Shown here one piece after another: positions 670 to 29,680 of a stretch of DNA of 33,791 bases. The notes beneath the pieces are model-generated. The model ran no database searches, was not told the origin of the DNA, and saw only the letters and a list, made by a program, of their open reading frames with translations. This DNA comes from Candidatus Hodarchaeota archaeon (GTDB lineage: Archaea > Asgardarchaeota > Heimdallarchaeia > Hodarchaeales > Hodarchaeaceae). Location of the stretch: positions 1 to 33,791 of the forward strand of contig JAEOTC010000122.1 in the NCBI GenBank assembly GCA_016840035.1, written 5' to 3'. The translations under genes and the position numbers were made by a program. Each line of letters begins with the position of its first letter. The stretch's first letter is position 1.

Positions 670-1698
670 TTAATATAATTGTACAAGCGGTTTTGCTAGA
701 AGTAAATAATGTTCCCTCAAGGTAAACTCCGCAATTTCCAGAATTTCAGATAATTTTTTCTGAGTTAGAACACCTCGTCTACTCTGCTTTAAATAACACC
801 CAGGAAAGATTTTCTGTCTTGCTAGTAGAATATCGGCTGCATTAATCATTGCAGCGGCTAAAATAAATGGATTCCTTCCCCCTCGCTTTACCAGTGGGAA
901 TTGATTGAGAAGCTGTTTCGCAACAACCCTAAGATGCTGAAAAAACTCTTCACGGTTGCTAGTTCTTTTTTGAATTGCGTTTCTAATTAGATAATCTTTC
1001 TGAATCCTACCTATAATTGCATCAAGATACTCTTCAGATTTCACATGCCTAACTCTAATTTTAGCATATTGGCGAATCAACGATGCCGATCTGATAATAT
1101 CCTTACCTGCTATTGAATAGCCATTGATTTGAGCTGCCTTTACCAGTCTTTTTAACTCAATATTCTCCTTTCTTGATCTTACGGCTAAATATAAAGCTCC
1201 CATAATTACACAAGACAATTTTGTCTTCTTTTTTAACTGATAATGAACTTTTTGGAAAAGATAAAGGGCATCCGCTCTTGTAGAATCCGTCACTTCAAGC
1301 GAACTACAAACTCGTGACAGCAAGCTATAACCTCGATATTCTCTTTGACGACCATTAAAATGTAAATAGATGTCATTTAATGGTTTTAATCTACGATATT
1401 GCAACTTCTTTGAGAGAGCCAACTGATTTCCAGAAGAATCGACAAAATTTTTCTTTTGAAACGATCCAATAAATGTCCCAAGGGTTTTCATTTTACTTGG
1501 TTGTTCACTTACTGATGCATACTGACTTCCATAACTACCTTCGGAACTTATGAGCTGAAGGGATGGTTTTTCATAAATTTGTTGGGCAATCAAACCACAG
1601 TTTATACAAACAATATCAGAATCTGTCTGAATTAGGTTTCCATCGCATTCAAGGCATTTATATTTCATCCTTTTCACAATTATACGACTAGATCTCAT
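670..1698 (-). CDS. Divergent transcription initiation factor IIB (TFB)-like protein
   Basis: N-terminal Zn ribbon (CLEC-x12-CINCG) followed by cyclin-fold-like repeats (GALYLAVR; GRNPFILAAA; LTQKKLSEILEIAEFTLREHY). The real start is probably ATG 1668 (MKYKC). Confidence 0.8.
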   Translation of the reverse strand: MRSSRIIVKRMKYKCLECDGNLIQTDSDIVCINCGLIAQQIYEKPSLQLISSEGSYGSQYASVSEQPSKMKTLGTFIGSFQKKNFVDSSGNQLALSKKLQYRRLKPLNDIYLHFNGRQREYRGYSLLSRVCSSLEVTDSTRADALYLFQKVHYQLKKKTKLSCVIMGALYLAVRSRKENIELKRLVKAAQINGYSIAGKDIIRSASLIRQYAKIRVRHVKSEEYLDAIIGRIQKDYLIRNAIQKRTSNREEFFQHLRVVAKQLLNQFPLVKRGGRNPFILAAAMINAADILLARQKIFPGCYLKQSRRGVLTQKKLSEILEIAEFTLREHYLLLAKPLVQLY

Positions 1699-1913
1699 AG
1701 TATCTAAACTAAGGATAGAATGAGAGACTAGTGTGAAAATGATGAAGTTTGGATCTATATCTTAAACGGGCAAAAGTGTTATTTGTCAAAGCATTTTTTC
1801 GAAATAGTACAATGAATCAGAGATTCTGAAAATATAAAAGATCAAGATCTCTCCAGAAATTATAAGTGATAATTATTTGATTCCTTGAAAAATACGCTAG
1901 AGGAATAAAACTG

Positions 1914-2516
1914 ATGAAAAGACAAGGTGAAGGATCCAAGAAAGGAAAAAGATTTCCTCCAAAATATAAACGGGGAATTGGTAAAGTTCTTGTCTTAGAT
2001 TATTACCCTCAGGGGAAATCTTTGAGTCGGAAATCTGCTGAGGCTTTTAACCCGTTGGCTGTTGTTATTTCAATAGATCAAATGCAATTCTTTGATATAA
2101 TACTGGCTAGGGGAAAGGATATTCAGGTAAGTGAATCACTTAATGTCTCTGAATTAAAATCTACTATTTTAAAAATTAATCGAATAGGATTTAACGAATT
2201 ATCTGATTCCGCGGTCGATATACTTCCTGAAATGATAAAAAAAATTGTCTCTCTTACAGAATCAAGATTCACTAACTTCCTGAATAACGCCCGTCCTTTA
2301 ACCACTCAAATGCACCAACTTCAACTGTTACCAGGAATAGGGAATAAGCGTCTTTGGCAAATTATTGAGGCACGAAGAAAAAAACCGTTTGAGGGTTTTA
2401 TTGATTTTACAGATCGGACAGGTATCTCTGATCCAATCGGACTATTTTCAAATAGAATACTGCAGGAGATCGAGGGAGGAGAAAAATATCAAATTTTTAT
2501 TAAGAAACAGAAATGA
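1914..2516 (+). CDS. DUF655 putative RNA-binding protein (OB fold + HhH)
   Basis: VLDYYPQG, FLNNARPLTTQMHQLQLLPGIGNK and RILQEI motifs; conserved archaeal position just upstream of ksgA. Confidence 0.9.
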   Translation: MKRQGEGSKKGKRFPPKYKRGIGKVLVLDYYPQGKSLSRKSAEAFNPLAVVISIDQMQFFDIILARGKDIQVSESLNVSELKSTILKINRIGFNELSDSAVDILPEMIKKIVSLTESRFTNFLNNARPLTTQMHQLQLLPGIGNKRLWQIIEARRKKPFEGFIDFTDRTGISDPIGLFSNRILQEIEGGEKYQIFIKKQK

Positions 2517-2522
2517 TTTAGC

Positions 2523-3422
2523 TTGACTCAATTCCACTTCCTGAACGAGGGGGATCTAAAGCGTTATACACAATCTATTATAGCTCAGTATGCCATTACT
2601 CCCCGTAAAGCACATGGTCAAAATTTCGTAATAAATAAGGAACTAATTAATGAGATCTTATCAGCAGCTAACATAAAAGAAGATGAAACGGTTGTGGAGA
2701 TAGGGGGTGGTATTGGAACACTCACATATTTTTTGTTACAGGAAGCAAAACAAGTTATTTCGTATGAAATTGATCCGTTATTGGCTTCTGTCTTGAAGAA
2801 AGAATTTTTTAACTATAACAAAAAACTCGAGATAATTTCTAAAGATTTCTTGAAAGACAAAGTCATTCCATGTGGGAAAATTATTTCCAATCTTCCATAT
2901 TCGATTTCTTCTCCAGTTATTTGGAAGATCACAAATATGAGTAACCCACCGAATTTGATTGCTTTTACTCTCCAAGAGGAATTTGCTAATCACCTTTGTG
3001 CAAAAGTAGGTTCAAAGGACTATAGTAGATTGTCTGTCTATTCTTCATATTTTTACGAATTTGAAAAGATTTCATCTTTCTCTGCAGAATATTTTTATCC
3101 CACACCTCAAGTTTCTTCTTGTTTGGTGAGAGGAGAACGTATTAAACCACCAGATATTGTAAAGGAAAAATCTTTTTTGCTTTTTCTAACCTCTCTATTT
3201 TGTAGAAAAAATAAAAAGACTCGCAATAACCTAATGGTGTACCAAAAGAAATTAGATCGTAAATTTCGATCTGGATATCGAAAACTTGTCGATTCCTTGG
3301 AATATTCACAAATAAAACCGATTAACCTTTCTCCCAACGCGATCTTGACCCTTTATTCAGATTATCGTCAGATCATAACTGAAAATCTGAAAATTGAAAA
3401 TTTCTTAAGTTTTATGGAATAA
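2523..3422 (+). CDS. ksgA: 16S rRNA adenine dimethyltransferase KsgA/Dim1
   Basis: GQNF, SAM motif VVEIGGGIGTLT, YEID, SNLPYSISS, YSRLSV, FYPTPQVSS; TTG start. Confidence 0.95.
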   Translation: MTQFHFLNEGDLKRYTQSIIAQYAITPRKAHGQNFVINKELINEILSAANIKEDETVVEIGGGIGTLTYFLLQEAKQVISYEIDPLLASVLKKEFFNYNKKLEIISKDFLKDKVIPCGKIISNLPYSISSPVIWKITNMSNPPNLIAFTLQEEFANHLCAKVGSKDYSRLSVYSSYFYEFEKISSFSAEYFYPTPQVSSCLVRGERIKPPDIVKEKSFLLFLTSLFCRKNKKTRNNLMVYQKKLDRKFRSGYRKLVDSLEYSQIKPINLSPNAILTLYSDYRQIITENLKIENFLSFME

Positions 3423-3690
3423 AAGGGTAGATCAGAGGAAGTTTAGCTAGGAAAAATGGAACAGTCACAATGGTGAATGTAATTGCTGTTATTACAATGT
3501 TAAGTTCGTTCTCTTTTCTATTCCTAAGTAATTTCTCCCCAAGACGTAGTATGAGCATTATTAATGAAATTGCTCGTACAAACCAAGCAACAAATACGAG
3601 TAAAGTCCATAGAATTTGATCTCCTGATTCTATAAGGAGCTGCCACCCATGAATGTACTCATCCCACTGGTTTAGAAAAAATACAAACAT
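3412..3690 (-). CDS. Small hypothetical membrane protein (2 TM)
   Basis: ORF 3412..3702, probable ATG at 3690. Two hydrophobic stretches separated by a charged loop (EKLLRNRKENE); 11-nt convergent overlap with ksgA. Confidence 0.55.
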   Translation of the reverse strand: MFVFFLNQWDEYIHGWQLLIESGDQILWTLLVFVAWFVRAISLIMLILRLGEKLLRNRKENELNIVITAITFTIVTVPFFLAKLPLIYPFIP

Positions 3691-4269
3691 TTCATGCACC
3701 AAGAAGAAATCAATATATCGAATTTAGACTCACTTATAATCTCCTAAGTTCCTGAAAACTGATAATCTACCTATTCAGAGTTTACATTTCAAAATCCAAC
3801 TATTTTGTCAAGAAAATGATCTTATCAATTCTTATAATCAAATGAATTTCCGTATAAATATCCAATCTTTGATACTGATAGAATTTAATACGGTTGAGAA
3901 AAATAAAAGATTACGTTGGACCTTTAATCAGGTATTAAGTAGGGCCAAAAAAAGATTCCACCTTATTTCACTTAAAAAGATTAGATAAATTGGGATTATA
4001 TTACTGGAAATATCCAGATAACCATTTAATAAACGAGAGTTATCATAAAATCTTCTTTAATACATTTTAAACAGGTTTAAAACTAAATCGTTCCAAAAGG
4101 AACCAGATTCAGAAAAAAACATTTAAAGATAGCTCAAGTGTTGCCAAACTGGACATAATAACGTAAATTTACCAACTGGATGAATAAAGAAGTAATATCC
4201 TTATGTAATTTTATGTTCAACCTTTATAGATTGAATTAGATGACCAAAATACACAGCAGATGGACAATT

Positions 4270-5070
4270 ATGGAACTAGAGATATTAGAACAGCATGAAA
4301 ATTTTGCCAAATTCGTCCTCTCTGGTATTACTCCTACCTTTGCAAACACATTACGTCGGCTAATAATGAGTGAGGTACCAACAATGGCGATTGATGAGGT
4401 TATTATCATTGAAAATACTACCCCTCTTTACGATGAAATCGTGGCACATCGTCTTGGTTTATTACCACTCAAAACTGATCTGTCCAACTATGTTTTACCT
4501 TCAGAATGTGAATGTGGAGGACAGGGTTGTACCTCATGTGAAGTATCCTTGACTCTTGAAGTTTCAGGAGAAAAAGATATTGAGATTGTCTATTCAAACA
4601 GTCTATTATCGCAAGATCCGAAGATTACACCAGTATTTCCAAATATTCCAATTCTGAAAATGGCTAAAAACCAGAAAATCTTTCTTGAAGCAATAGCTCG
4701 TCTTGGACGAGGAATTGATCACGCAAAATGGCAACCTATTTCTACAGTTTCTTACAAATACTACCCAGTTGTTCAATTCAATGAAAAGAACTGTACTTAC
4801 TGCGAAGATTGCGTTAATGCATGTCCTCGTGACATTATCAAGATTGAAAATGGGAAAATATCTGCACAAAATGTTATCAATTGTAGTTTGTGTAATCAAT
4901 GTGTAGATGTTTGTGAAACCAATGCTGTTTTTATCACAACAACAGGAACCGATTTTATTTTCACCATTGAAAGTACAGGAGCTCTCAGTACGAAAGAAAT
5001 ACTGCTTAAATCTCTTAAAATTTTAAACGGTAAAGCAGACGAATTTAAAGTTTATGTCGAAGAATTTTAG
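4270..5070 (+). CDS. rpoD: DNA-directed RNA polymerase subunit D (Rpo3) with ferredoxin-like domain
   Basis: FANTLRRLIMSEVPTMAID, LYDEIVAHRLGLLPL, GRGIDHAKWQP, FTIESTGAL; two CxxCxxCxxxC motifs. The track start is 4240; ATG 4270 fits the family better. Confidence 0.97.
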   Translation: MELEILEQHENFAKFVLSGITPTFANTLRRLIMSEVPTMAIDEVIIIENTTPLYDEIVAHRLGLLPLKTDLSNYVLPSECECGGQGCTSCEVSLTLEVSGEKDIEIVYSNSLLSQDPKITPVFPNIPILKMAKNQKIFLEAIARLGRGIDHAKWQPISTVSYKYYPVVQFNEKNCTYCEDCVNACPRDIIKIENGKISAQNVINCSLCNQCVDVCETNAVFITTTGTDFIFTIESTGALSTKEILLKSLKILNGKADEFKVYVEEF

Positions 5071-13492: not shown

Positions 13493-13822
13493 TTGATGGA
13501 TTTGCCAGTCTTAGACGAACAGACAAAACAAATTACTACAAAGTGTCCAATTTGTGGTAAATGTGAAACAATAACTCTAAATCTTCTTGAATTAGAACAT
13601 GCGAGAATAAATCATTCTCTTCTTACTAAAGCAATACCTCATGTCAAAAATGGACATGTACTGACGTTATACATTGATGGAGAGGGACTTGTAAGAAGGA
13701 AATATTGTTTTGATTTAGTTCGGAATAATGTCATTAACATAGATAAGCTTACTCCAGGAAAGCTGGATAATCTGTTCGATAAAATGATTAAAGACTCAAT
13801 GCACAAAGAAAAACAAATTTAA
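13493..13822 (+). CDS. Small putative metal-binding protein (CxxC...H-x4-H...YID..G.VR)
   Basis: 109 aa with KCPICGKC and PHVKNGHVLTLYIDGEGLVRR; first gene of the ATPase operon. Confidence 0.65.
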   Translation: MMDLPVLDEQTKQITTKCPICGKCETITLNLLELEHARINHSLLTKAIPHVKNGHVLTLYIDGEGLVRRKYCFDLVRNNVINIDKLTPGKLDNLFDKMIKDSMHKEKQI

Positions 13823-13847
13823 TAAAAGAATTAGGGGATGATAACCC

Positions 13848-15185
13848 TTGCGGTTATATGATCTAGTAAAAATTCAAGATCCCAGCTCGCTAATTGATTC
13901 TTACGAGTTTCAATGCTATCAGACTACAATAAGAAAAAATTCAACCTCATCCATTGTTGAGTACTCAGTAAACTATAATAAGAAGGTTTTAAGGGAATTA
14001 ACAAATTTCAATGCTTATGAAAGACAATTAAAAGATGTGATCAAGGAATTTATTTTAAATTCTGAAGATTTTGTTACACTCGATTGTCTAATTTCGTTCG
14101 TGTCAAACATTGAAGATAAATTTTCAGACATTTCTATTTCTTTAAGAATAGCAGTCCTCCTCCGGATTCTTAATATGGAAAGAATTGGTCCTTTGTTAAT
14201 AGATGACCAAATTGATGAAATTTATTTGGATTCGAGTCAGTCATACGTTTATATTGATCATGTTCAATATGGGAGGTGTTCAACCCAAATCCGGCTCAAT
14301 AAACAAGAGATTGACTCTTTTATTAGTAGGATTACTCTTGAAAACGATTTCAACTTGAATAGAGAAAATCCAACCATGAAAGGAGAATTAATAACTAAGC
14401 TCTTTCATACAAGAATTACTATTGATATCCCGCCTCTATTAGTTGACGATATTCACCTTGATATTAGGAAATTTCATCCCAATAATCTCCAATTAAGAGA
14501 TCTTGTTAAAATTGGAAGTCTTACAAAAATACAGGGAAAATTCCTTAAGGAAATGATAAAGAATTTAATTTCAATATCAATTATTGGACCTCCTAATTCG
14601 GGAAAAACAACACTGCAAAATGCTCTAATAGAATATCTCCCTTCACATTTTAGACTTTTATCTGTTGAGGATGTTCTTGAATCTACAAATTTAAGAAAGG
14701 GAAATCAAATACGATTTAGACTGGGTTATGATCCAAAGGACACTAGAACTTATTCAAAGGCAATGGAAATCCAGAAATTATTGCATAGAAGCCCTGATTA
14801 CGTTAATTTGGGGGAACTTTCAACTGAAAGCAATTTTATCGCGTTTTTGAATGTTCTTTCTGTAGGTATTCCTTCAATTCAGACTATTCACGGTAGAGAT
14901 CCAAATTATTTACTTTTACGTTTACAGGATATTTACAAGATCCCTGTAAGTTTAATTAAAACTTCATTTCCACATATTTTTATCGAAATGGACACTATCT
15001 GGAATAAAAGCTTCCGAAACCGGTTTGTTGTTAGAATTGCAGAATTAACAACAGAAGGAACAATAGTAATCCTTTCTGATAGAGAAAGAGATGATACTGG
15101 TAATATAGGTATTAATAAAGACAATTCTACATCATTAGAATTTCTTGAATATCGAAAACATGAGTCTTTAGGACATTATGATTAG
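13848..15185 (+). CDS. Type II/IV secretion ATPase, TadA/CpaF/VirB11 family
   Basis: PLLIDDQIDEIY, LDIRKF, Walker A GPPNSGKTT, Asp box SVEDVLE, Walker B RSPDYVNLGE, partial His box QTIHG. Confidence 0.9.
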   Translation: MRLYDLVKIQDPSSLIDSYEFQCYQTTIRKNSTSSIVEYSVNYNKKVLRELTNFNAYERQLKDVIKEFILNSEDFVTLDCLISFVSNIEDKFSDISISLRIAVLLRILNMERIGPLLIDDQIDEIYLDSSQSYVYIDHVQYGRCSTQIRLNKQEIDSFISRITLENDFNLNRENPTMKGELITKLFHTRITIDIPPLLVDDIHLDIRKFHPNNLQLRDLVKIGSLTKIQGKFLKEMIKNLISISIIGPPNSGKTTLQNALIEYLPSHFRLLSVEDVLESTNLRKGNQIRFRLGYDPKDTRTYSKAMEIQKLLHRSPDYVNLGELSTESNFIAFLNVLSVGIPSIQTIHGRDPNYLLLRLQDIYKIPVSLIKTSFPHIFIEMDTIWNKSFRNRFVVRIAELTTEGTIVILSDRERDDTGNIGINKDNSTSLEFLEYRKHESLGHYD

Positions 15186-24551: not shown

Positions 24552-24594
24552 AACCTTTTTAAAAAATCAACAAATTAACAGAAAATAGTCAATT

Positions 24595-24669
24595 GGGCCG
24601 ATAGCTCAGCTTGGTAGCAGCGCCTGGTTTGCATCCAGGAGGTCGTGGGTTCAAATCCCACTCGGTCCA
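24595..24669 (+). tRNA. tRNA-Ala(TGC), no intron, CCA not encoded
   Basis: Acceptor GGGCCGA/TCGGTCC with the G3:U70 identity pair and A73; anticodon arm CCTGG-TT-TGC-AT-CCAGG; T arm GTGGG-TTCAAAT-CCCAC. Confidence 0.96.
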
Positions 24670-24811
24670 TGTAATTGCTCCAACTCACTTTTTATACAGA
24701 TAACTTTTTCCTGGATAATCCTGCATATTGATTTCATATCTAAATGACAGATGGGGGAACTTCCTGTTTTGTATTGGGATTTAATGCAGAGAAAGAGGAA
24801 AAATGAATTTA

Positions 24812-25024
24812 TTAAGAAAACAATGAGCCAAGTTCTCTTAATAACTCATCTGCATTCATCAGTAACCAATCTAAAACTCCAGTTACAATAGAAAAGATTA
24901 GCAAGAAACCGAATAAGCTCAAACCTATTAATATACCTTCCTCCACAAGAGGCGAGCCTCTCCTTTTAGATTGAATTCTTTTGAACTGTGAATGAGCCTT
25001 TCTTAACCTTTTATGCCTTTTCAT
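24812..25024 (-). CDS. Putative Flp-like type IV prepilin (class III signal peptide)
   Basis: Basic leader ending KRRG, then SPLVEEGILIGLSLFGFLLIFSIV (Glu at +5, hydrophobic helix) and a short amphipathic tail; 47-aa mature peptide. Confidence 0.65.
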   Translation of the reverse strand: MKRHKRLRKAHSQFKRIQSKRRGSPLVEEGILIGLSLFGFLLIFSIVTGVLDWLLMNADELLRELGSLFS

Positions 25025-25128
25025 GATTCCATCACAATAATAAATATTTGGTTGCTTTTAATCTCCTAAATTTCTAGGTTTTTGGGACTTTAAAATGCAA
25101 AAAGATAACTATGAAGTTGGTGTAGTAC

Positions 25129-25719
25129 TTGCGGTTAGTTCCTTCGAAAGAAAAAAAACCATTAAAAATAGTCCTTTTGGGAGAAGGCGGTGTGGGAAAA
25201 ACAACAATATCAAAATCTTACATTGATAACTACTTTTTTACGAAATCAAAACAAACAATTGCTGTAGAATTTCATTCAAAGATAATTACACGTTCAGATA
25301 AGGAAGTTAGTAAACTTCAGATTTGGGATCTTGGGGGCCAAGGGCACTTCAAACATATGGGTGTCTTTAGTGAATTTTGTAGGGGAGCTGATGCAGCCTT
25401 ACTTTGCTTTGATCTTACAGATCTTTCATCCTTATTCAATCTTGCAGAATGGCTTGGGTTCATTGCTCCCACTATTCCTAGGTTTTTGATTGGTACAAAA
25501 TCTGACCTAGCAACTCAAGATGAACAGAATTTCAATCTAGAACGTTATGTTCACAGATATAATTGTGTCACATCATTTAAATGTTCAGCTAAAGATCTGA
25601 AAACGGTTATGAGTATTTTCGAGAGCGTTCTACAAACAATCGAAAGAAAAAACGGCAAAATGAGTAATATATCTTCAGAATCGAATTCTCACATTTCTAA
25701 TAGACTTTTAGTTTCATGA
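25129..25719 (+). CDS. Ras-superfamily (Rab-like) small GTPase
   Basis: G1 GEGGVGKT, G2 QTIAVEF, G3 KLQIWDLGGQ, G4 GTKSD, G5 CSAK. Confidence 0.95.
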   Translation: MRLVPSKEKKPLKIVLLGEGGVGKTTISKSYIDNYFFTKSKQTIAVEFHSKIITRSDKEVSKLQIWDLGGQGHFKHMGVFSEFCRGADAALLCFDLTDLSSLFNLAEWLGFIAPTIPRFLIGTKSDLATQDEQNFNLERYVHRYNCVTSFKCSAKDLKTVMSIFESVLQTIERKNGKMSNISSESNSHISNRLLVS

Positions 25720-25729
25720 GGTACTAGTA

Positions 25730-26479
25730 ATGCAAAAACTGTTAAGAAAAACCATGAATGAGCAATCTTCACGAATTCCAAGTGGAGTTATTGGCTTTGA
25801 TAAGCTTGTAAAAGGAGGATTTAGAGAACATTCAGTTAATGTGATCATTGCGGATCCTGGCTGTGGTAAGTCCACTTTCTGTTGGCAATATTGTTCCAAT
25901 GATCTGAATATTCCAGCGCTTTATGTGTCATTAGAGCAAAATGTAAACTCCGTATTAAGAGATTGCAACGATATCGGATTAAAGAAATTCAATAAAAAAT
26001 ATAGAGAAGGAAATTTGCAATTCCAAGTTGCTTTCAATGTCGAATCTGAACTAACTTCAGGAGAAATTGGATTGAGATTTTTCATGAATGAGCTACCTAA
26101 ATATCTTGAAGTAATCAAGGAAACGGCCTCTAAATACTCAGGAGGAATTCGAATCGCGATTGATCCTTTAACGCCATTACTACTAGAAATTTCGGACCCA
26201 AATCAACAGAGAAATGCAATCAACCGAATTTTTTCATCGCTAAGAGAGATCGGAACTGCAGTGGTCACACTAGAAAAAGGTTTTGGCGATGTATTAGCAA
26301 GAATCCCTCTTTTTCTCTCAGATTCTATAATAGAGCTCGAGCATATTGGGCTAGGGGGTATATACAACCGCACATTGAGTATCAGAAAATTTAGAGGATC
26401 ATCTCATTCTGAAACTCCTCAACCAATTGGTTTTCAAAAGGAAAAAGGATTAATTGTTTATGATATCTCAAATACATGA
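25730..26479 (+). CDS. Single-domain KaiC/RAD55-like RecA-superfamily ATPase
   Basis: RIPSGVIGFDKLVKGGF, Walker A DPGCGKST, YVSLEQ, Walker B IAIDP, RTLSIRKFRGSSHS. Confidence 0.9.
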   Translation: MQKLLRKTMNEQSSRIPSGVIGFDKLVKGGFREHSVNVIIADPGCGKSTFCWQYCSNDLNIPALYVSLEQNVNSVLRDCNDIGLKKFNKKYREGNLQFQVAFNVESELTSGEIGLRFFMNELPKYLEVIKETASKYSGGIRIAIDPLTPLLLEISDPNQQRNAINRIFSSLREIGTAVVTLEKGFGDVLARIPLFLSDSIIELEHIGLGGIYNRTLSIRKFRGSSHSETPQPIGFQKEKGLIVYDISNT

Positions 26480-26909
26480 TATTGAAGCTCATACATTTAC
26501 ATTAAATAGGGCAATCGAATCCATTCAAAATGAGGCCAACCACTTATTTTTATTTCAGGATGTAAAAGCAGCAATTCTTTTCCGTTTGGATGGGAGAGTA
26601 ATTACCTCTTTTTATGAAATGGAAACATCTAATTCTATATTATCTGTTATCAAATGGGTCAAAGAAATTATCTCAAAAACTAAAGATGAACTTAAACATG
26701 GTGCAAGTTCAATTAAGTATAATAAACGGAGTCATCAAAATGAATCATTACCAGTTTATTTTTACCGTACTGGAAATTCTGGAATCTTAGTAGTTATTTT
26801 ACATTCAAAAGCTAATACAGGATTAATGGAAATAGAGATGAGTCGAACCGCTAGACGATTAGGGATAATTATTGATAAAAAAAGGCCAATAGGGGATTTA
26901 AATATATGA
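26460..26909 (+). CDS. Roadblock/LC7 (MglB/LAMTOR-like) domain protein
   Basis: DVKAAILFRLDGRVITS and ILVVILHSKANTGLMEIEMSRTARRL match the roadblock strand/helix patterns; overlaps the KaiC-like gene end. Confidence 0.8.
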   Translation: MISQIHDIEAHTFTLNRAIESIQNEANHLFLFQDVKAAILFRLDGRVITSFYEMETSNSILSVIKWVKEIISKTKDELKHGASSIKYNKRSHQNESLPVYFYRTGNSGILVVILHSKANTGLMEIEMSRTARRLGIIIDKKRPIGDLNI

Positions 26910-28285
26910 AAGCTTCAGTTGGCCTTTGTATAGACCATGATTTGGAAATCGCAACAAGTTCTGCGATTGAACAGGCTGAAAATACTTTAAATGCCAAACC
27001 AACTGGGATATTGTATTTTACTGGGACACACCCAGGTGGTAAGAAAGTTTATAATCGAGCTTTACGAATTATTCAGAAGAAATTTCCCAATACTCCATTA
27101 GCAGGGTGTTCAGGCATTGGGATAGCAAATAAAGCGGATCACGGTCTGAAAGGTGCTGCGATCATGCTTTTTACAGGAATTACAGTCAGAACACAACTTG
27201 TAAAACGTTTCAGAATAAGGAATAAATCCAAATCTAAAAACATATTGAGAAGATGTCTTAGTATTGAATCCGAGGAATTAAAAAAAAACGCTTCCACAAC
27301 TTTCATCTTCTTCCCTCCTGGTCTAGGATTTCCAAAATTAATGGTAAATTTATTGAACCATAAACTTCAAGGTTTCAATCCATTTTTTATGTTAAATAAC
27401 CGAATATGGAGAGATGTACCTGCTCTTTCACGAATATCAGGAAAGATGGTCAATTTTCTTATGAATGTGGGTGGGATTGGAATTTCCTATTCCTCAGCTT
27501 GGCCATTATTTCGAGAGTTATATGAACGAGGCATTCATTATACTGGTACATTCGGTGTAGACCCCATTACTATGAATAAATCTTACCAATTTCATAATTT
27601 TAAAGCGTTTAAGGATTCTATGACATTTATTGCTCTGAGCTCCCCTGAATTACGATTTATGAGTAAAACTGATACTGGAGCGAAAGTTGATTTCCAAAAA
27701 ACCTTCTCTCTTGATAGTTATTTAGATGGAGGATTTATTCCGAGGATTAATGGTCAATGGGGAGCAGAATCTTTACTTAAATTGTACGAAATGGAGAAAA
27801 CACCAGAAATTTTGGAAGAATGTACTCAAAAATACTTCTATTATCACCCATTCAGACCTTTATGTATTTTGGATGATAAAAATCGTCAAAATCTGTATGG
27901 ACTTTCGATAAATCCGAATCTCAATCATGCATTAATTACTGCACCGAATCAGGTTGCAAAGCAGCTTTATACAAATAAAAAAAGTAAGACACCATCCTAT
28001 ATCTGTAATCAGAGTGCTATTACAATTGAAAACTTGTTAGATCAAAGTTTATCTTCCTTAATAGGAGACAACACCAAATTTGGGCTATTTTTTGACTGTG
28101 GTAATCGAGCGATGATCGTTGGAGACCGATTTAAACAGTATCTTGAGCATTATTCAGATAATTTAGGTGATATTCCTTATCTTGTTATCATATCAGGAGG
28201 AGAAGTTAATTCCCAGTCTTTTCCAATTGTAAACTTTAGTTTGGTTTCTGGAGTTGCAGAAAAACTTTTACCAGCCTTATCTTAG
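26906..28285 (+). CDS. FIST-domain (FIST_N + FIST_C) sensory protein
   Basis: N-terminal SAIEQA...ILYFT...FPNTPLAGCSGIG and C-terminal FGLFFDCGNR...ISGGEV...NFSLV; ATGA overlap with the roadblock gene. Confidence 0.8.
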   Translation: MKASVGLCIDHDLEIATSSAIEQAENTLNAKPTGILYFTGTHPGGKKVYNRALRIIQKKFPNTPLAGCSGIGIANKADHGLKGAAIMLFTGITVRTQLVKRFRIRNKSKSKNILRRCLSIESEELKKNASTTFIFFPPGLGFPKLMVNLLNHKLQGFNPFFMLNNRIWRDVPALSRISGKMVNFLMNVGGIGISYSSAWPLFRELYERGIHYTGTFGVDPITMNKSYQFHNFKAFKDSMTFIALSSPELRFMSKTDTGAKVDFQKTFSLDSYLDGGFIPRINGQWGAESLLKLYEMEKTPEILEECTQKYFYYHPFRPLCILDDKNRQNLYGLSINPNLNHALITAPNQVAKQLYTNKKSKTPSYICNQSAITIENLLDQSLSSLIGDNTKFGLFFDCGNRAMIVGDRFKQYLEHYSDNLGDIPYLVIISGGEVNSQSFPIVNFSLVSGVAEKLLPALS

Positions 28286-28300
28286 GAAAATTCAGTTAAA

Positions 28301-29680
28301 TTGGTGTATAAGGATATGTTTTATGTCGATACTCTACTTGGTATCAAATCATATCCTCAAGAACTGAAAATTTTAATATTCAAGTTTTTTAGCCTTGAAC
28401 TTATTATTACGGTGATTTATTTAAGTAATACTTGGATATCACTATATTATATCTCTATTTTAGGATCCTATGCACTTTTTGGGACCATCGTTGCGATAGG
28501 TACCATTATTGGATTCACTCTAGATCTTCCCTTAGGGATTCTTACCGATAGATTTGGTCAAAGAGGGGCTTTTTGTGGGGCTTTATTGTGCCTAACAATA
28601 TACTATATGGGTCTAATAATAGCTACAACTCCGTTTCAGTTATTATGTCTTGAAATTCTAGTAGGAATTTATTCTGCTCTTCTTTCGGGGTCATATCTAG
28701 CTTGGTTTTTCAACTCTTGGGCTTACCTTGTAGAAAAGAATGAAAGAAACGATAAACTCCTACGAAGTACGATGGGGAATGTAAATTTCATCAAAATGAT
28801 ATTTGTCTCCTCTTTTACAATCTTAGGGGGATTTTTGTTATTTCAAGCACATCTACCTCCCCAATTGATATTTTTAATACAGGGAATAATATCCTCAATT
28901 GGATTTATGTTTGGATTCATAATTATGGTTAATAAGTATCCCATATATCGAAATATAAAACATAAAATGACAACTAGAGAGAAAAAACCACCTATTCGCT
29001 CCATTATTAGAAGAAAAGGAGGAAAAATACAAAACCAATATCTGAGGATTTCTCCATATTTCATCAGTTTTGGAGTTCTAAGGTTCACTTCATTGTCTTT
29101 TTCAACAGTAATATTCCCGTTGATCATCTATATTCTTTTATCTTCTGAGTCCAAATCAATCAATAGTAGTTACTTTAATATTGATTTTACATCAATGGCT
29201 ATCTTGGTATTATCTCTTGTTAATTCTATTACAGATTTCACGTACGGAATTTCTAGTAGATTTACAGGAAAATTTACACGTTCAATTAAATCCCCTCGTA
29301 AAGGTCTCGCTATGATCTACACTCTGAATTTCCCATTAGCGTGGTTGTCGATTCTCTTTGTTCTAATAATCCAACTTGATGCAATATTGAAGCTTCAAAT
29401 AGTAATATTACTATTTCTAGGCAGACTCATTATCAGTGGATTAACCTCAGGCCTACATTGGCAATTATATTATTCCATAACCTCATCAGAAAATCGAAGC
29501 TCCCAAGAATCTTACCAAAATACGTTAAATCTTCTGATTTATACATTTGGCTTTAGTATTCTTGGACAGATTATGGAGAGAAAGGGATTGTTAGAAGGAT
29601 TGTTATTGCTATTTATACTAGGTTTATTTGGTGTCCTAATTTTAGTAAAGGTAAAGGATCCTGAACCAAATTACGACTAA
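28301..29680 (+). CDS. MFS transporter
   Basis: About 12 hydrophobic segments in two halves with a central basic loop; MFS motif A GILTDRFGQR. Confidence 0.85.
   Translation: MVYKDMFYVDTLLGIKSYPQELKILIFKFFSLELIITVIYLSNTWISLYYISILGSYALFGTIVAIGTIIGFTLDLPLGILTDRFGQRGAFCGALLCLTIYYMGLIIATTPFQLLCLEILVGIYSALLSGSYLAWFFNSWAYLVEKNERNDKLLRSTMGNVNFIKMIFVSSFTILGGFLLFQAHLPPQLIFLIQGIISSIGFMFGFIIMVNKYPIYRNIKHKMTTREKKPPIRSIIRRKGGKIQNQYLRISPYFISFGVLRFTSLSFSTVIFPLIIYILLSSESKSINSSYFNIDFTSMAILVLSLVNSITDFTYGISSRFTGKFTRSIKSPRKGLAMIYTLNFPLAWLSILFVLIIQLDAILKLQIVILLFLGRLIISGLTSGLHWQLYYSITSSENRSSQESYQNTLNLLIYTFGFSILGQIMERKGLLEGLLLLFILGLFGVLILVKVKDPEPNYD

Follow-up and report, generated by a model that had tools for sequence, protein, structure and literature searches.

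The window analysed here is a stretch of 33,791 nucleotides (nt) from Candidatus Hodarchaeota archaeon (assembly GCA_016840035.1, contig JAEOTC010000122.1), an Asgard archaeon of the class Heimdallarchaeia, order Hodarchaeales and family Hodarchaeaceae. Five of its genes, at positions 25129-29680, encode a Rab-like small GTPase, a KaiC-like ATPase, a roadblock-fold protein, a FIST protein and a probable transporter of the major facilitator superfamily (MFS). We find that this module is a real, conserved operon and a variant of two known themes, the pairing of small GTPases with roadblock proteins and the KaiC-like hub. We give about even odds (a probability of roughly 0.5) to the interpretation that it is a conserved signalling module of the Heimdallarchaeia, built on an older archaeal trio of KaiC, roadblock and FIST genes that was joined by the GTPase and, in one genus, extended by the MFS transporter. 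Two observations made here are new: KaiC-like ATPases are repeatedly encoded next to small GTPases, and a small Cys/His protein, the last member of the operon in the family Heimdallarchaeaceae, is encoded in the window beside a type IV pilus-like ATPase.

Operon structure and domain content

All five open reading frames (ORFs) lie on the + strand, at 25129-25719, 25730-26479, 26454 (TTG) or 26460 (ATG)-26909, 26906-28285 and 28301-29680. Read from the sequence, the TGA of the GTPase gene is followed after 10 nt by the ATG of the KaiC-like gene. The KaiC-like and roadblock genes overlap by 20 nt if the latter begins at ATG 26460, the start chosen in most relatives, or by 26 nt if it begins at TTG 26454. 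The roadblock and FIST genes share an ATGA overlap, and 15 nt separate the TAG of the FIST gene from the TTG of the MFS gene. Judged from these tight or overlapping junctions, the five co-directional genes are one operon, as the original prediction, made from the sequence alone, had claimed; its five domain assignments hold as well, the one for the roadblock protein by fold only and the one for the transporter as probable. A TATA-like TTTAAA at 25089-25094 (+), 40 nt 5' of the GTPase start, is a candidate archaeal promoter, being a weak pattern match only, and a scan for sigma-70 promoters and terminators is uninformative for archaeal DNA. The operon is flanked upstream by tRNA-Ala (24594-24670) and a divergent ORF of 70 amino acids (aa), and downstream by a convergent secY.

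The first gene (25129-25719, +) encodes a Rab-like small GTPase of 196 aa that matches Pfam Ras with 106 bits (cut-off 21.6; E-value 1.6e-30). Its TTG start lines up with the ATG or GTG starts of relatives. The best solved relatives are Rab7, Ypt7 and Rab9, and 60 of the 60 best matches are Rabs. Nucleotide-binding motifs G1-G5 are intact (GEGGVGKT, QTIAVEF, WDLGGQ, GTKSD and CSAK), and the catalytic Gln of DxxGQ is kept across all operon GTPases, which read WDLGGQ or WDFAGQ at this position. Within the genus the G4 Asn of NKxD is replaced by Thr (TKSD); GTPases of the sister family Heimdallarchaeaceae keep NKxD. No C-terminal prenylation Cys was found in the tail, which ends ...NRLLVS. An identity as Rag/Gtr was rejected: the protein is a G domain alone, without a C-terminal roadblock domain, and its match to PF04670 Gtr1_RagA covers only residues 13-75 at 19.8 bits, below the cut-off of 22. 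MglA-type proteins generally lack the canonical Asp of G3, and an identity as MglA was rejected because all operon GTPases have a canonical G3 and no MglA occurs among the 60 best solved relatives.

The second gene (25730-26479, +) encodes a single-domain KaiC-like ATPase of the RecA superfamily, 249 aa long, with 101.5 bits against PF06745 (cut-off 26.6; E-value 5.8e-29). Among solved structures it is closest to KaiC and to three single-domain proteins of archaea, PH0284, PH0186 and SSO2452. The Walker A motif ADPGCGKST, the Glu of SLEQ, the Walker B Asp (IAIDPL) and RKFRGSxH are kept across 17 KaiC-like sequences, and this is the most conserved gene of the set, with 74-80% identity in the genus. 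Two narrower identities were rejected. The protein is not a circadian KaiC, having one domain rather than two in tandem (about 500 aa) and falling far below the cut-offs of the NCBIfam KaiC equivalogs, nor is it ArlH/FlaH, scoring 32 bits against a cut-off of 215 for NF052589 and 22 against 194 for PRK06067.

The third gene (26460-26909, +) encodes a protein of 149 aa, or 151 aa from TTG 26454, for which no match was found in the Pfam and NCBIfam libraries used, that copy of Pfam lacking PF27410. PF03259 Roadblock/LC7 likewise has no match in the window protein, and 3 of 16 relatives reach an E-value of 0.0045 at best. The AlphaFold (AF2) model, with a mean predicted local distance difference test (pLDDT) score of 83.6, has the roadblock order of elements, alpha-beta-beta-alpha-beta-beta-beta-alpha, the last being a C-terminal helix as in MglB. 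Its top Foldseek matches, at a probability of 1.0, are Asgard Roadblock3 (9jue), MglB (1j3w and 3t12) and Thor Roadblock (7f8m), and Ragulator and the Rag C-terminal domains also appear in the list. Homologues carry the precomputed tag PF27410 'AF0774' and the JGI name Roadblock/LC7/MglB. By its modelled fold only, then, the third gene is a roadblock/LC7 gene of the AF0774 type; it is present in a single copy in the genome.

FIST_N and FIST_C domains make up the 459-aa product of the fourth gene (26906-28285, +). The Pfam score for FIST_N (35 bits) exceeds the cut-off of 23.2 and that for FIST_C (26.2 bits) falls slightly below the cut-off of 28.5; both tags are precomputed on many homologues. 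This gene is also single copy, and the family is small, with 408 representatives among 1.84 billion proteins. The best Foldseek match of the AF2 model (pLDDT 75.8) is FBXO22, itself a FIST-containing protein. The fifth gene (28301-29680, +) encodes a probable, divergent MFS-type transporter of 459 aa. Its sequence shows 12 hydrophobic segments, and its motif A, GILTDRFGQR (G-x-L-x-D-R-x-G-x-R), is invariant, but it scores 23.6 bits against MFS_1 (E-value 2.9e-5), below the cut-off of 33.4.

Distribution and history of the module

We scanned 400 Asgard genomes by profile for FIST and for roadblock. FIST is present in 21 of 21 genomes of the genus, in 28 of 31 Heimdallarchaeaceae and in one genome each of two other families. 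Wherever both proteins match strongly their genes are adjacent, and the two are missing together from the same three Heimdallarchaeaceae genomes, all of them incomplete. The genus loci examined all share the entire gene order, KH through secY. The Heimdallarchaeaceae, a sister family with the module that includes Candidatus Heimdallarchaeum, have the order KaiC-roadblock-FIST-GTPase, at 25-35% identity and without MFS, and so does one genome of another family; the GTPase, 5'-terminal in Hodarchaeales, is thus 3'-terminal in Heimdallarchaeaceae. A conserved neighbourhood, for which the original prediction had proposed a search, is thus present both within the genus and in other families. Because the order is kept in the genus and the four-gene core recurs, rearranged, in another family at such low identity, the gene set goes far beyond chance. 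Inherited synteny alone, without any common function, would suit the genus, in which the flanking KH, tRNA and SecY genes are equally syntenic, but we consider it extremely improbable given that the core persists across families with different flanks, that stop and start codons overlap and that the co-occurrence of roadblock and FIST is perfect.

Shorter or altered versions of the module occur more widely. Another Hodarchaeales contig carries GTPase-KaiC-AF0774-FIST followed by unrelated genes, and a soil contig carries KaiC-AF0774, two opposite-strand genes and FIST, beside secY. In a genome of another, non-Heimdallarchaeial Asgard class, KaiC-roadblock-FIST is present without a GTPase, and the next gene is a strong MFS match unrelated to the one here. 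In Loki-type families one or two roadblock-like genes come before a distant FIST relative, and LuxE, an acyl-protein synthetase, comes after it (loci L046, 5726-9634; L047, 5250-9938; and L066). Weak roadblock matches in other Asgard families were rejected as versions of the module, having neither KaiC nor FIST next door. One single-contig record of the genus (L028, G016:C1:615000-631000) has a roadblock gene that is cut short and then no GTPase or KaiC; the presence there of a named partial protein points to a scaffold join rather than a real loss.

Four contigs outside the Asgard archaea were reached via distant FIST relatives. These contigs are DPANN-like, one of them bearing the NCBI name Candidatus Diapherotrites, and encode KaiC, a membrane protein of about 190 aa and an AF0774-like protein, either adjoining FIST or within about 3 kb of it. 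The trio is co-directional in L109; in L068, L071 and L108 the same three families lie within about 3 kb. The roadblock alignment matches one of the AF0774-like proteins with an hhalign probability of 92.5, and small GTPases are absent from these trio versions. The possibility that the protein of about 200 aa between KaiC and AF0774 is a FIST fragment was rejected. In L068, L108 and L109, FIST abuts one or two geranylgeranyl-reductase-like flavin adenine dinucleotide (FAD) enzymes, with the KaiC, membrane protein and AF0774 genes beside them.

This distribution supports, at the level of gene content, an old archaeal origin of the trio. The conserved unit is KaiC, roadblock and FIST, because MFS is confined to the genus and the GTPase is missing outside the Heimdallarchaeia. 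On this reading the GTPase is a later, class-level addition to the trio, and the MFS gene a genus-specific addition at the 3' end, located downstream of FIST in 10 genus loci, those with DNA reaching past FIST. The original prediction had seen in the five genes a complete transporter-sensor-adaptor-switch circuit, a claim that finds no support in that form: besides the limited ranges of MFS and GTPase, the other FIST-linked MFS proteins belong to unrelated subfamilies. The accompanying analogy to SLC38A9-Ragulator-Rag nutrient sensing, by which the transporter would report its substrate via FIST and roadblock to the GTPase, holds in logic only, the GTPase being Rab7-like, without the roadblock C-terminal domain and under the Gtr1/RagA cut-off. 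We regard such a circuit as very unlikely. An MFS gene does adjoin a FIST relative in three lineages, the closest relatives of the GTPase are the lysosomal Rab7/Ypt7, and the roadblock fold also resembles Ragulator and the Rag C-terminal domains. However, homology of the three MFS proteins was not supported, with hhalign probabilities of 29 and 39 and only the general MFS motif in common; MFS is absent from the Heimdallarchaeaceae loci and from the other Hodarchaeales contig; and a single roadblock gene is present, with no Ragulator-like set.

The source genome has 63 small GTPase-like frames. A maximum likelihood tree was built from 89 small GTPases: every paralogue in this genome, another 18 paralogues taken from a complete Heimdallarchaeum genome, and 18 copies from operons. 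It placed the operon GTPases on one side of a branch with a support of 72, nested in a clade supported at 95 by the Shimodaira-Hasegawa-like approximate likelihood ratio test (SH-aLRT) that includes two long-branch paralogues of the source genome. The operon GTPases of each family, Hodarchaeaceae and Heimdallarchaeaceae, have a support of 99. The simplest reading of the tree is that the operon GTPases are one fast-evolving subfamily that joined the trio once and later changed position. The nearest paralogues are two tandem GTPases on another contig of the same genome (L093, G000:C117:25500-32500), preceded by a 144-aa ORF and a 420-aa coiled-coil protein; that contig has at least five small GTPase genes.

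Proposed signalling mechanism and comparison with known systems

FIST domains are ligand sensors, as in NosP. In the signalling mechanism that we propose, FIST would be the input and bind a small molecule, which in the genus could be the MFS cargo, the transporter perhaps supplying or reporting the ligand. A KaiC-like hexamer would act as a gate, translating this input into a state that depends on ATP or phosphorylation. The roadblock dimer, whose gene is translationally coupled to that of KaiC, would be the adaptor of the ATPase and act on the GTPase as a platform of the GTPase-activating protein (GAP) or guanine nucleotide exchange factor (GEF) type, and the GTPase would hand the state to effectors. 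For such a roadblock platform there are precedents in MglB, which acts on MglA, and in the roadblock/longin complexes that act on Rag and Rab7.

Several findings weigh against the signalling interpretation. Each step of the mechanism is inferred from gene neighbourhood and fold. The FIST model has moderate quality and resembles FBXO22 loosely, with a template modelling (TM) score of 0.4-0.5. The distribution is patchy, the module being found in none of the genomes of three Heimdallarchaeial families (f2, 0/2; f5, 0/12; f7, 0/3) and in 1 of 12 of a fourth (f4), and in Heimdall LC_3 the region within 5 kb of the FIST relative has no called gene bearing a KaiC or AF0774 tag. Between the operon GTPases of the two families, simple orthology was rejected, as reciprocal best hits fail (ranks 8 and about 15-28). 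Two separate recruitments of the GTPase are possible, because the branch that unites the operon copies is weak and the tree search was quick. Finally, distant FIST relatives adjoin LuxE, radical SAM and geranylgeranyl-reductase-like genes, a hint that the role lies in metabolism and not in sensing.

Taken further, these neighbours, the radical SAM gene among them being that of a B12/radical SAM enzyme, would place the trio in metabolism or membrane-lipid homeostasis, with FIST enzyme-like or substrate-binding, the MFS or membrane protein moving the compound and the GTPase accessory. Consistent with this, Toblerone-fold cyclic amide hydrolases are the next structural matches of the FIST model after FBXO22, and a membrane protein or MFS is present in several trio versions. 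We nevertheless consider this explanation unlikely. No catalytic motif was identified, and the enzyme partners vary by lineage while KaiC and roadblock are constant. The Heimdallarchaeaceae version has no adjoining enzyme or transporter, and the geranylgeranyl-reductase-like neighbours come from related DPANN-like contigs and may reflect simple synteny.

As a signalling module, the operon can be compared with several known systems. MglB is the roadblock GAP of MglA, and the resemblance to MglA/MglB of Myxococcus xanthus and Thermus thermophilus lies in a Ras-superfamily GTPase encoded near a roadblock-fold protein that counts MglB among its best structural matches. Here, however, the GTPase is Rab-like with a canonical DxxGQ, KaiC and FIST have no MglAB counterpart, and the roadblock and GTPase genes are separated, by KaiC in the window and by FIST in the sister family. 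Ragulator serves Rag, and Mon1-Ccz1 serves Rab7, as a roadblock/longin platform. In these systems roadblock-type dimers act on small GTPases, and the operon GTPase is most similar to Rab7/Ypt7. The module differs in having one roadblock gene and a GTPase without a roadblock C-terminal domain or prenylation Cys, and none of the eukaryotic roadblock/longin systems is known to include a KaiC-type ATPase or a FIST protein. The actinobacterial conservons CvnA-D are likewise four-gene operons, in which a roadblock protein and a Ras-like GTPase are encoded together with a sensor that has an ATP-binding domain and with a further protein of unknown role. In the module, none of the five proteins has a HATPase or DUF742 Pfam match, the unrelated KaiC and FIST occupy those places, and the module is archaeal, not bacterial.

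Among the Asgard archaea themselves, an operon of a LAMTOR1-like roadblock, a Rab-like GTPase and a DENN protein has been described (Liu et al., bioRxiv 10.1101/2020.10.19.343400). It shares with the module the conserved pairing of a roadblock and a Rab-like GTPase with a larger third protein. In contrast to that operon, the large protein here is FIST, the KaiC-like ATPase is invariant and the distribution is narrower. Identity of the two operons was rejected because profile and fold both identify the large protein as FIST; no DENN domain was found in it by Pfam or among the Foldseek matches listed to rank 50. KaiC-like ATPases, ArlH/FlaH included, have been proposed as archaeal signalling hubs, according to the account of Makarova, Galperin and Koonin (mBio 2017) given in PMC5847659. 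The module fits this theme, as its KaiC-like ATPase has a single domain and is accompanied by a small partner gene of adaptor-like kind and by putative input and output genes, although this ATPase is not ArlH. The same three families are linked in non-Heimdallarchaeial archaea (PF27410), in versions that differ in the membrane protein of about 190 aa between KaiC and roadblock and in having no small GTPase.

Full-text literature searches, which did not cover the 2017 KaiC-hub paper, so that a partial prior mention is possible, returned nothing that combines FIST, roadblock, KaiC and GTPase in archaea. Nor did they return anything combining KaiC, Asgard and GTPase, or anything on AF0774. The claim that the five-part combination is undescribed stands within that scope. 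Asgard archaea carry dozens of small GTPases. Their operons rarely reveal GTPase regulators, so that the GTPases cannot be matched to GAPs or GEFs (PMC10933270). In the cultured Asgard archaeon MK-D1, GTPase genes are generally not in operons with roadblock genes (Tran et al. 2024, PMC10933270). The module is an exception, in that a roadblock protein, an ATPase and a sensor-type protein are named as likely partners of one otherwise unassignable GTPase subfamily, in the lineage closest to eukaryotes. Its four soluble proteins are small and biochemically testable.

KaiC-GTPase pairs and a small Cys/His protein

The pairing of KaiC with a GTPase extends beyond the module. Four of the eight KaiC-like frames in the source genome are closely preceded, in the same orientation, by a small GTPase, and adjacency was found for 3 of 8 and 2 of 5 KaiC-like genes in two complete genomes (G010 and G038, respectively). 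The chance expectation, taken as the share of positions within 1 kb of GTPase genes, is about 3-4% per KaiC-like gene. The resulting binomial probabilities, about 1e-4 to 7e-3, overstate independence because the genomes are related and two of the pairs are duplicates. The four pairs of the source genome are the module, an Arf-like set and two copies of a Rab-like GTPase-65 aa-KaiC-LplA set. The repeated pairing suggests a link wider than one operon. We put forward, as a tentative and rather doubtful extension, that in the Heimdallarchaeia small GTPases have KaiC-like ATPases as a general class of partners that had gone unrecognised; the nucleotide or phosphorylation state of the ATPase, set by FIST and read by roadblock, would control a Rab-like switch. 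If true, control of this kind would be a logic of GTPase regulation unmatched in bacteria or eukaryotes, in those archaea that are most closely related to the latter.

The other pairs have neighbours of their own. In the Arf-like set (L089, G000:C184:72500-79500; 1109-4302, -), the Arf-like GTPase, KaiC-like ATPase, a ubiquitin-like protein and a ThiF/E1-type enzyme are encoded in one direction; the Arf-like GTPase-KaiC pair, joined here to a ubiquitin-type system, is also adjacent in G010. The duplicated set (L091, G000:C11, 1736-4370; L090, G000:C139, 785-3470) consists of a Rab-like GTPase, a 65-aa ORF, a KaiC-like ATPase and an LplA-type lipoate ligase.

Heimdallarchaeaceae operons end, directly after the GTPase, with a conserved protein of about 105 aa that has a CxxC and a His/Asn/His-rich motif. 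This family has a weak match (hhalign probability 88, E-value 3e-6, 26% identity) to a CxxC/His protein of 109 aa encoded in the window at 13493-13822 (+). The ORF is the only relative in Hodarchaeaceae genomes, with one match per genome in five genomes, and an Atlas search with the small protein returned Asgard clusters only. It lies 25 nt upstream of a T2SSE/VirB11-type ATPase gene (PF00437, E-value 8.7e-15), the pair spanning 13493-15185 (+) within a pilus-like locus 11-13 kb from the module, with the ATPase 10 kb upstream. Tentatively, and from sequence likeness, the small Cys/His protein could be a relocated fifth component of the sister-family module, and in Hodarchaeaceae the output of the module may run through it to the type IV pilus-like machine.

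An alternative raised in the original prediction is that a surface filament machine, type IV pilus-like or other, is under the control of the module, much as MglA/MglB control polarity or ArlH acts in the archaellum. This alternative gained the weak link of the small protein to the pilus-type ATPase gene, and archaeal type IV pilus loci are reported to include KaiC-family ATPases as well as roadblock proteins (PMC4858521). Its original basis was the 70-aa ORF divergent from the GTPase gene (24812-25024, -), which is prepilin-like, with a basic N-terminus, G|SPLVE, a Glu at +5 and one hydrophobic helix, and is 70-86% identical across the genus. This gene has no relative near the module in other families and is kept only within the genus-wide synteny that also holds KH, tRNA-Ala and SecY. 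The KaiC-like ATPase, moreover, is far under the ArlH/FlaH thresholds, and apart from the small protein no protein of the pilus locus has a relative near the Heimdallarchaeaceae modules. Pilus control as the function of the module is in our view quite unlikely.

In the Heimdallarchaeaceae the module has a different neighbour, a winged-helix gene that is divergent from it (L035, 4640-6086; L033, 4868-6152; L036, 10543-11301). The winged-helix protein matches E3 UFM1 ligase and DDRGK profiles, and an OST3/OST6-like gene adjoins.

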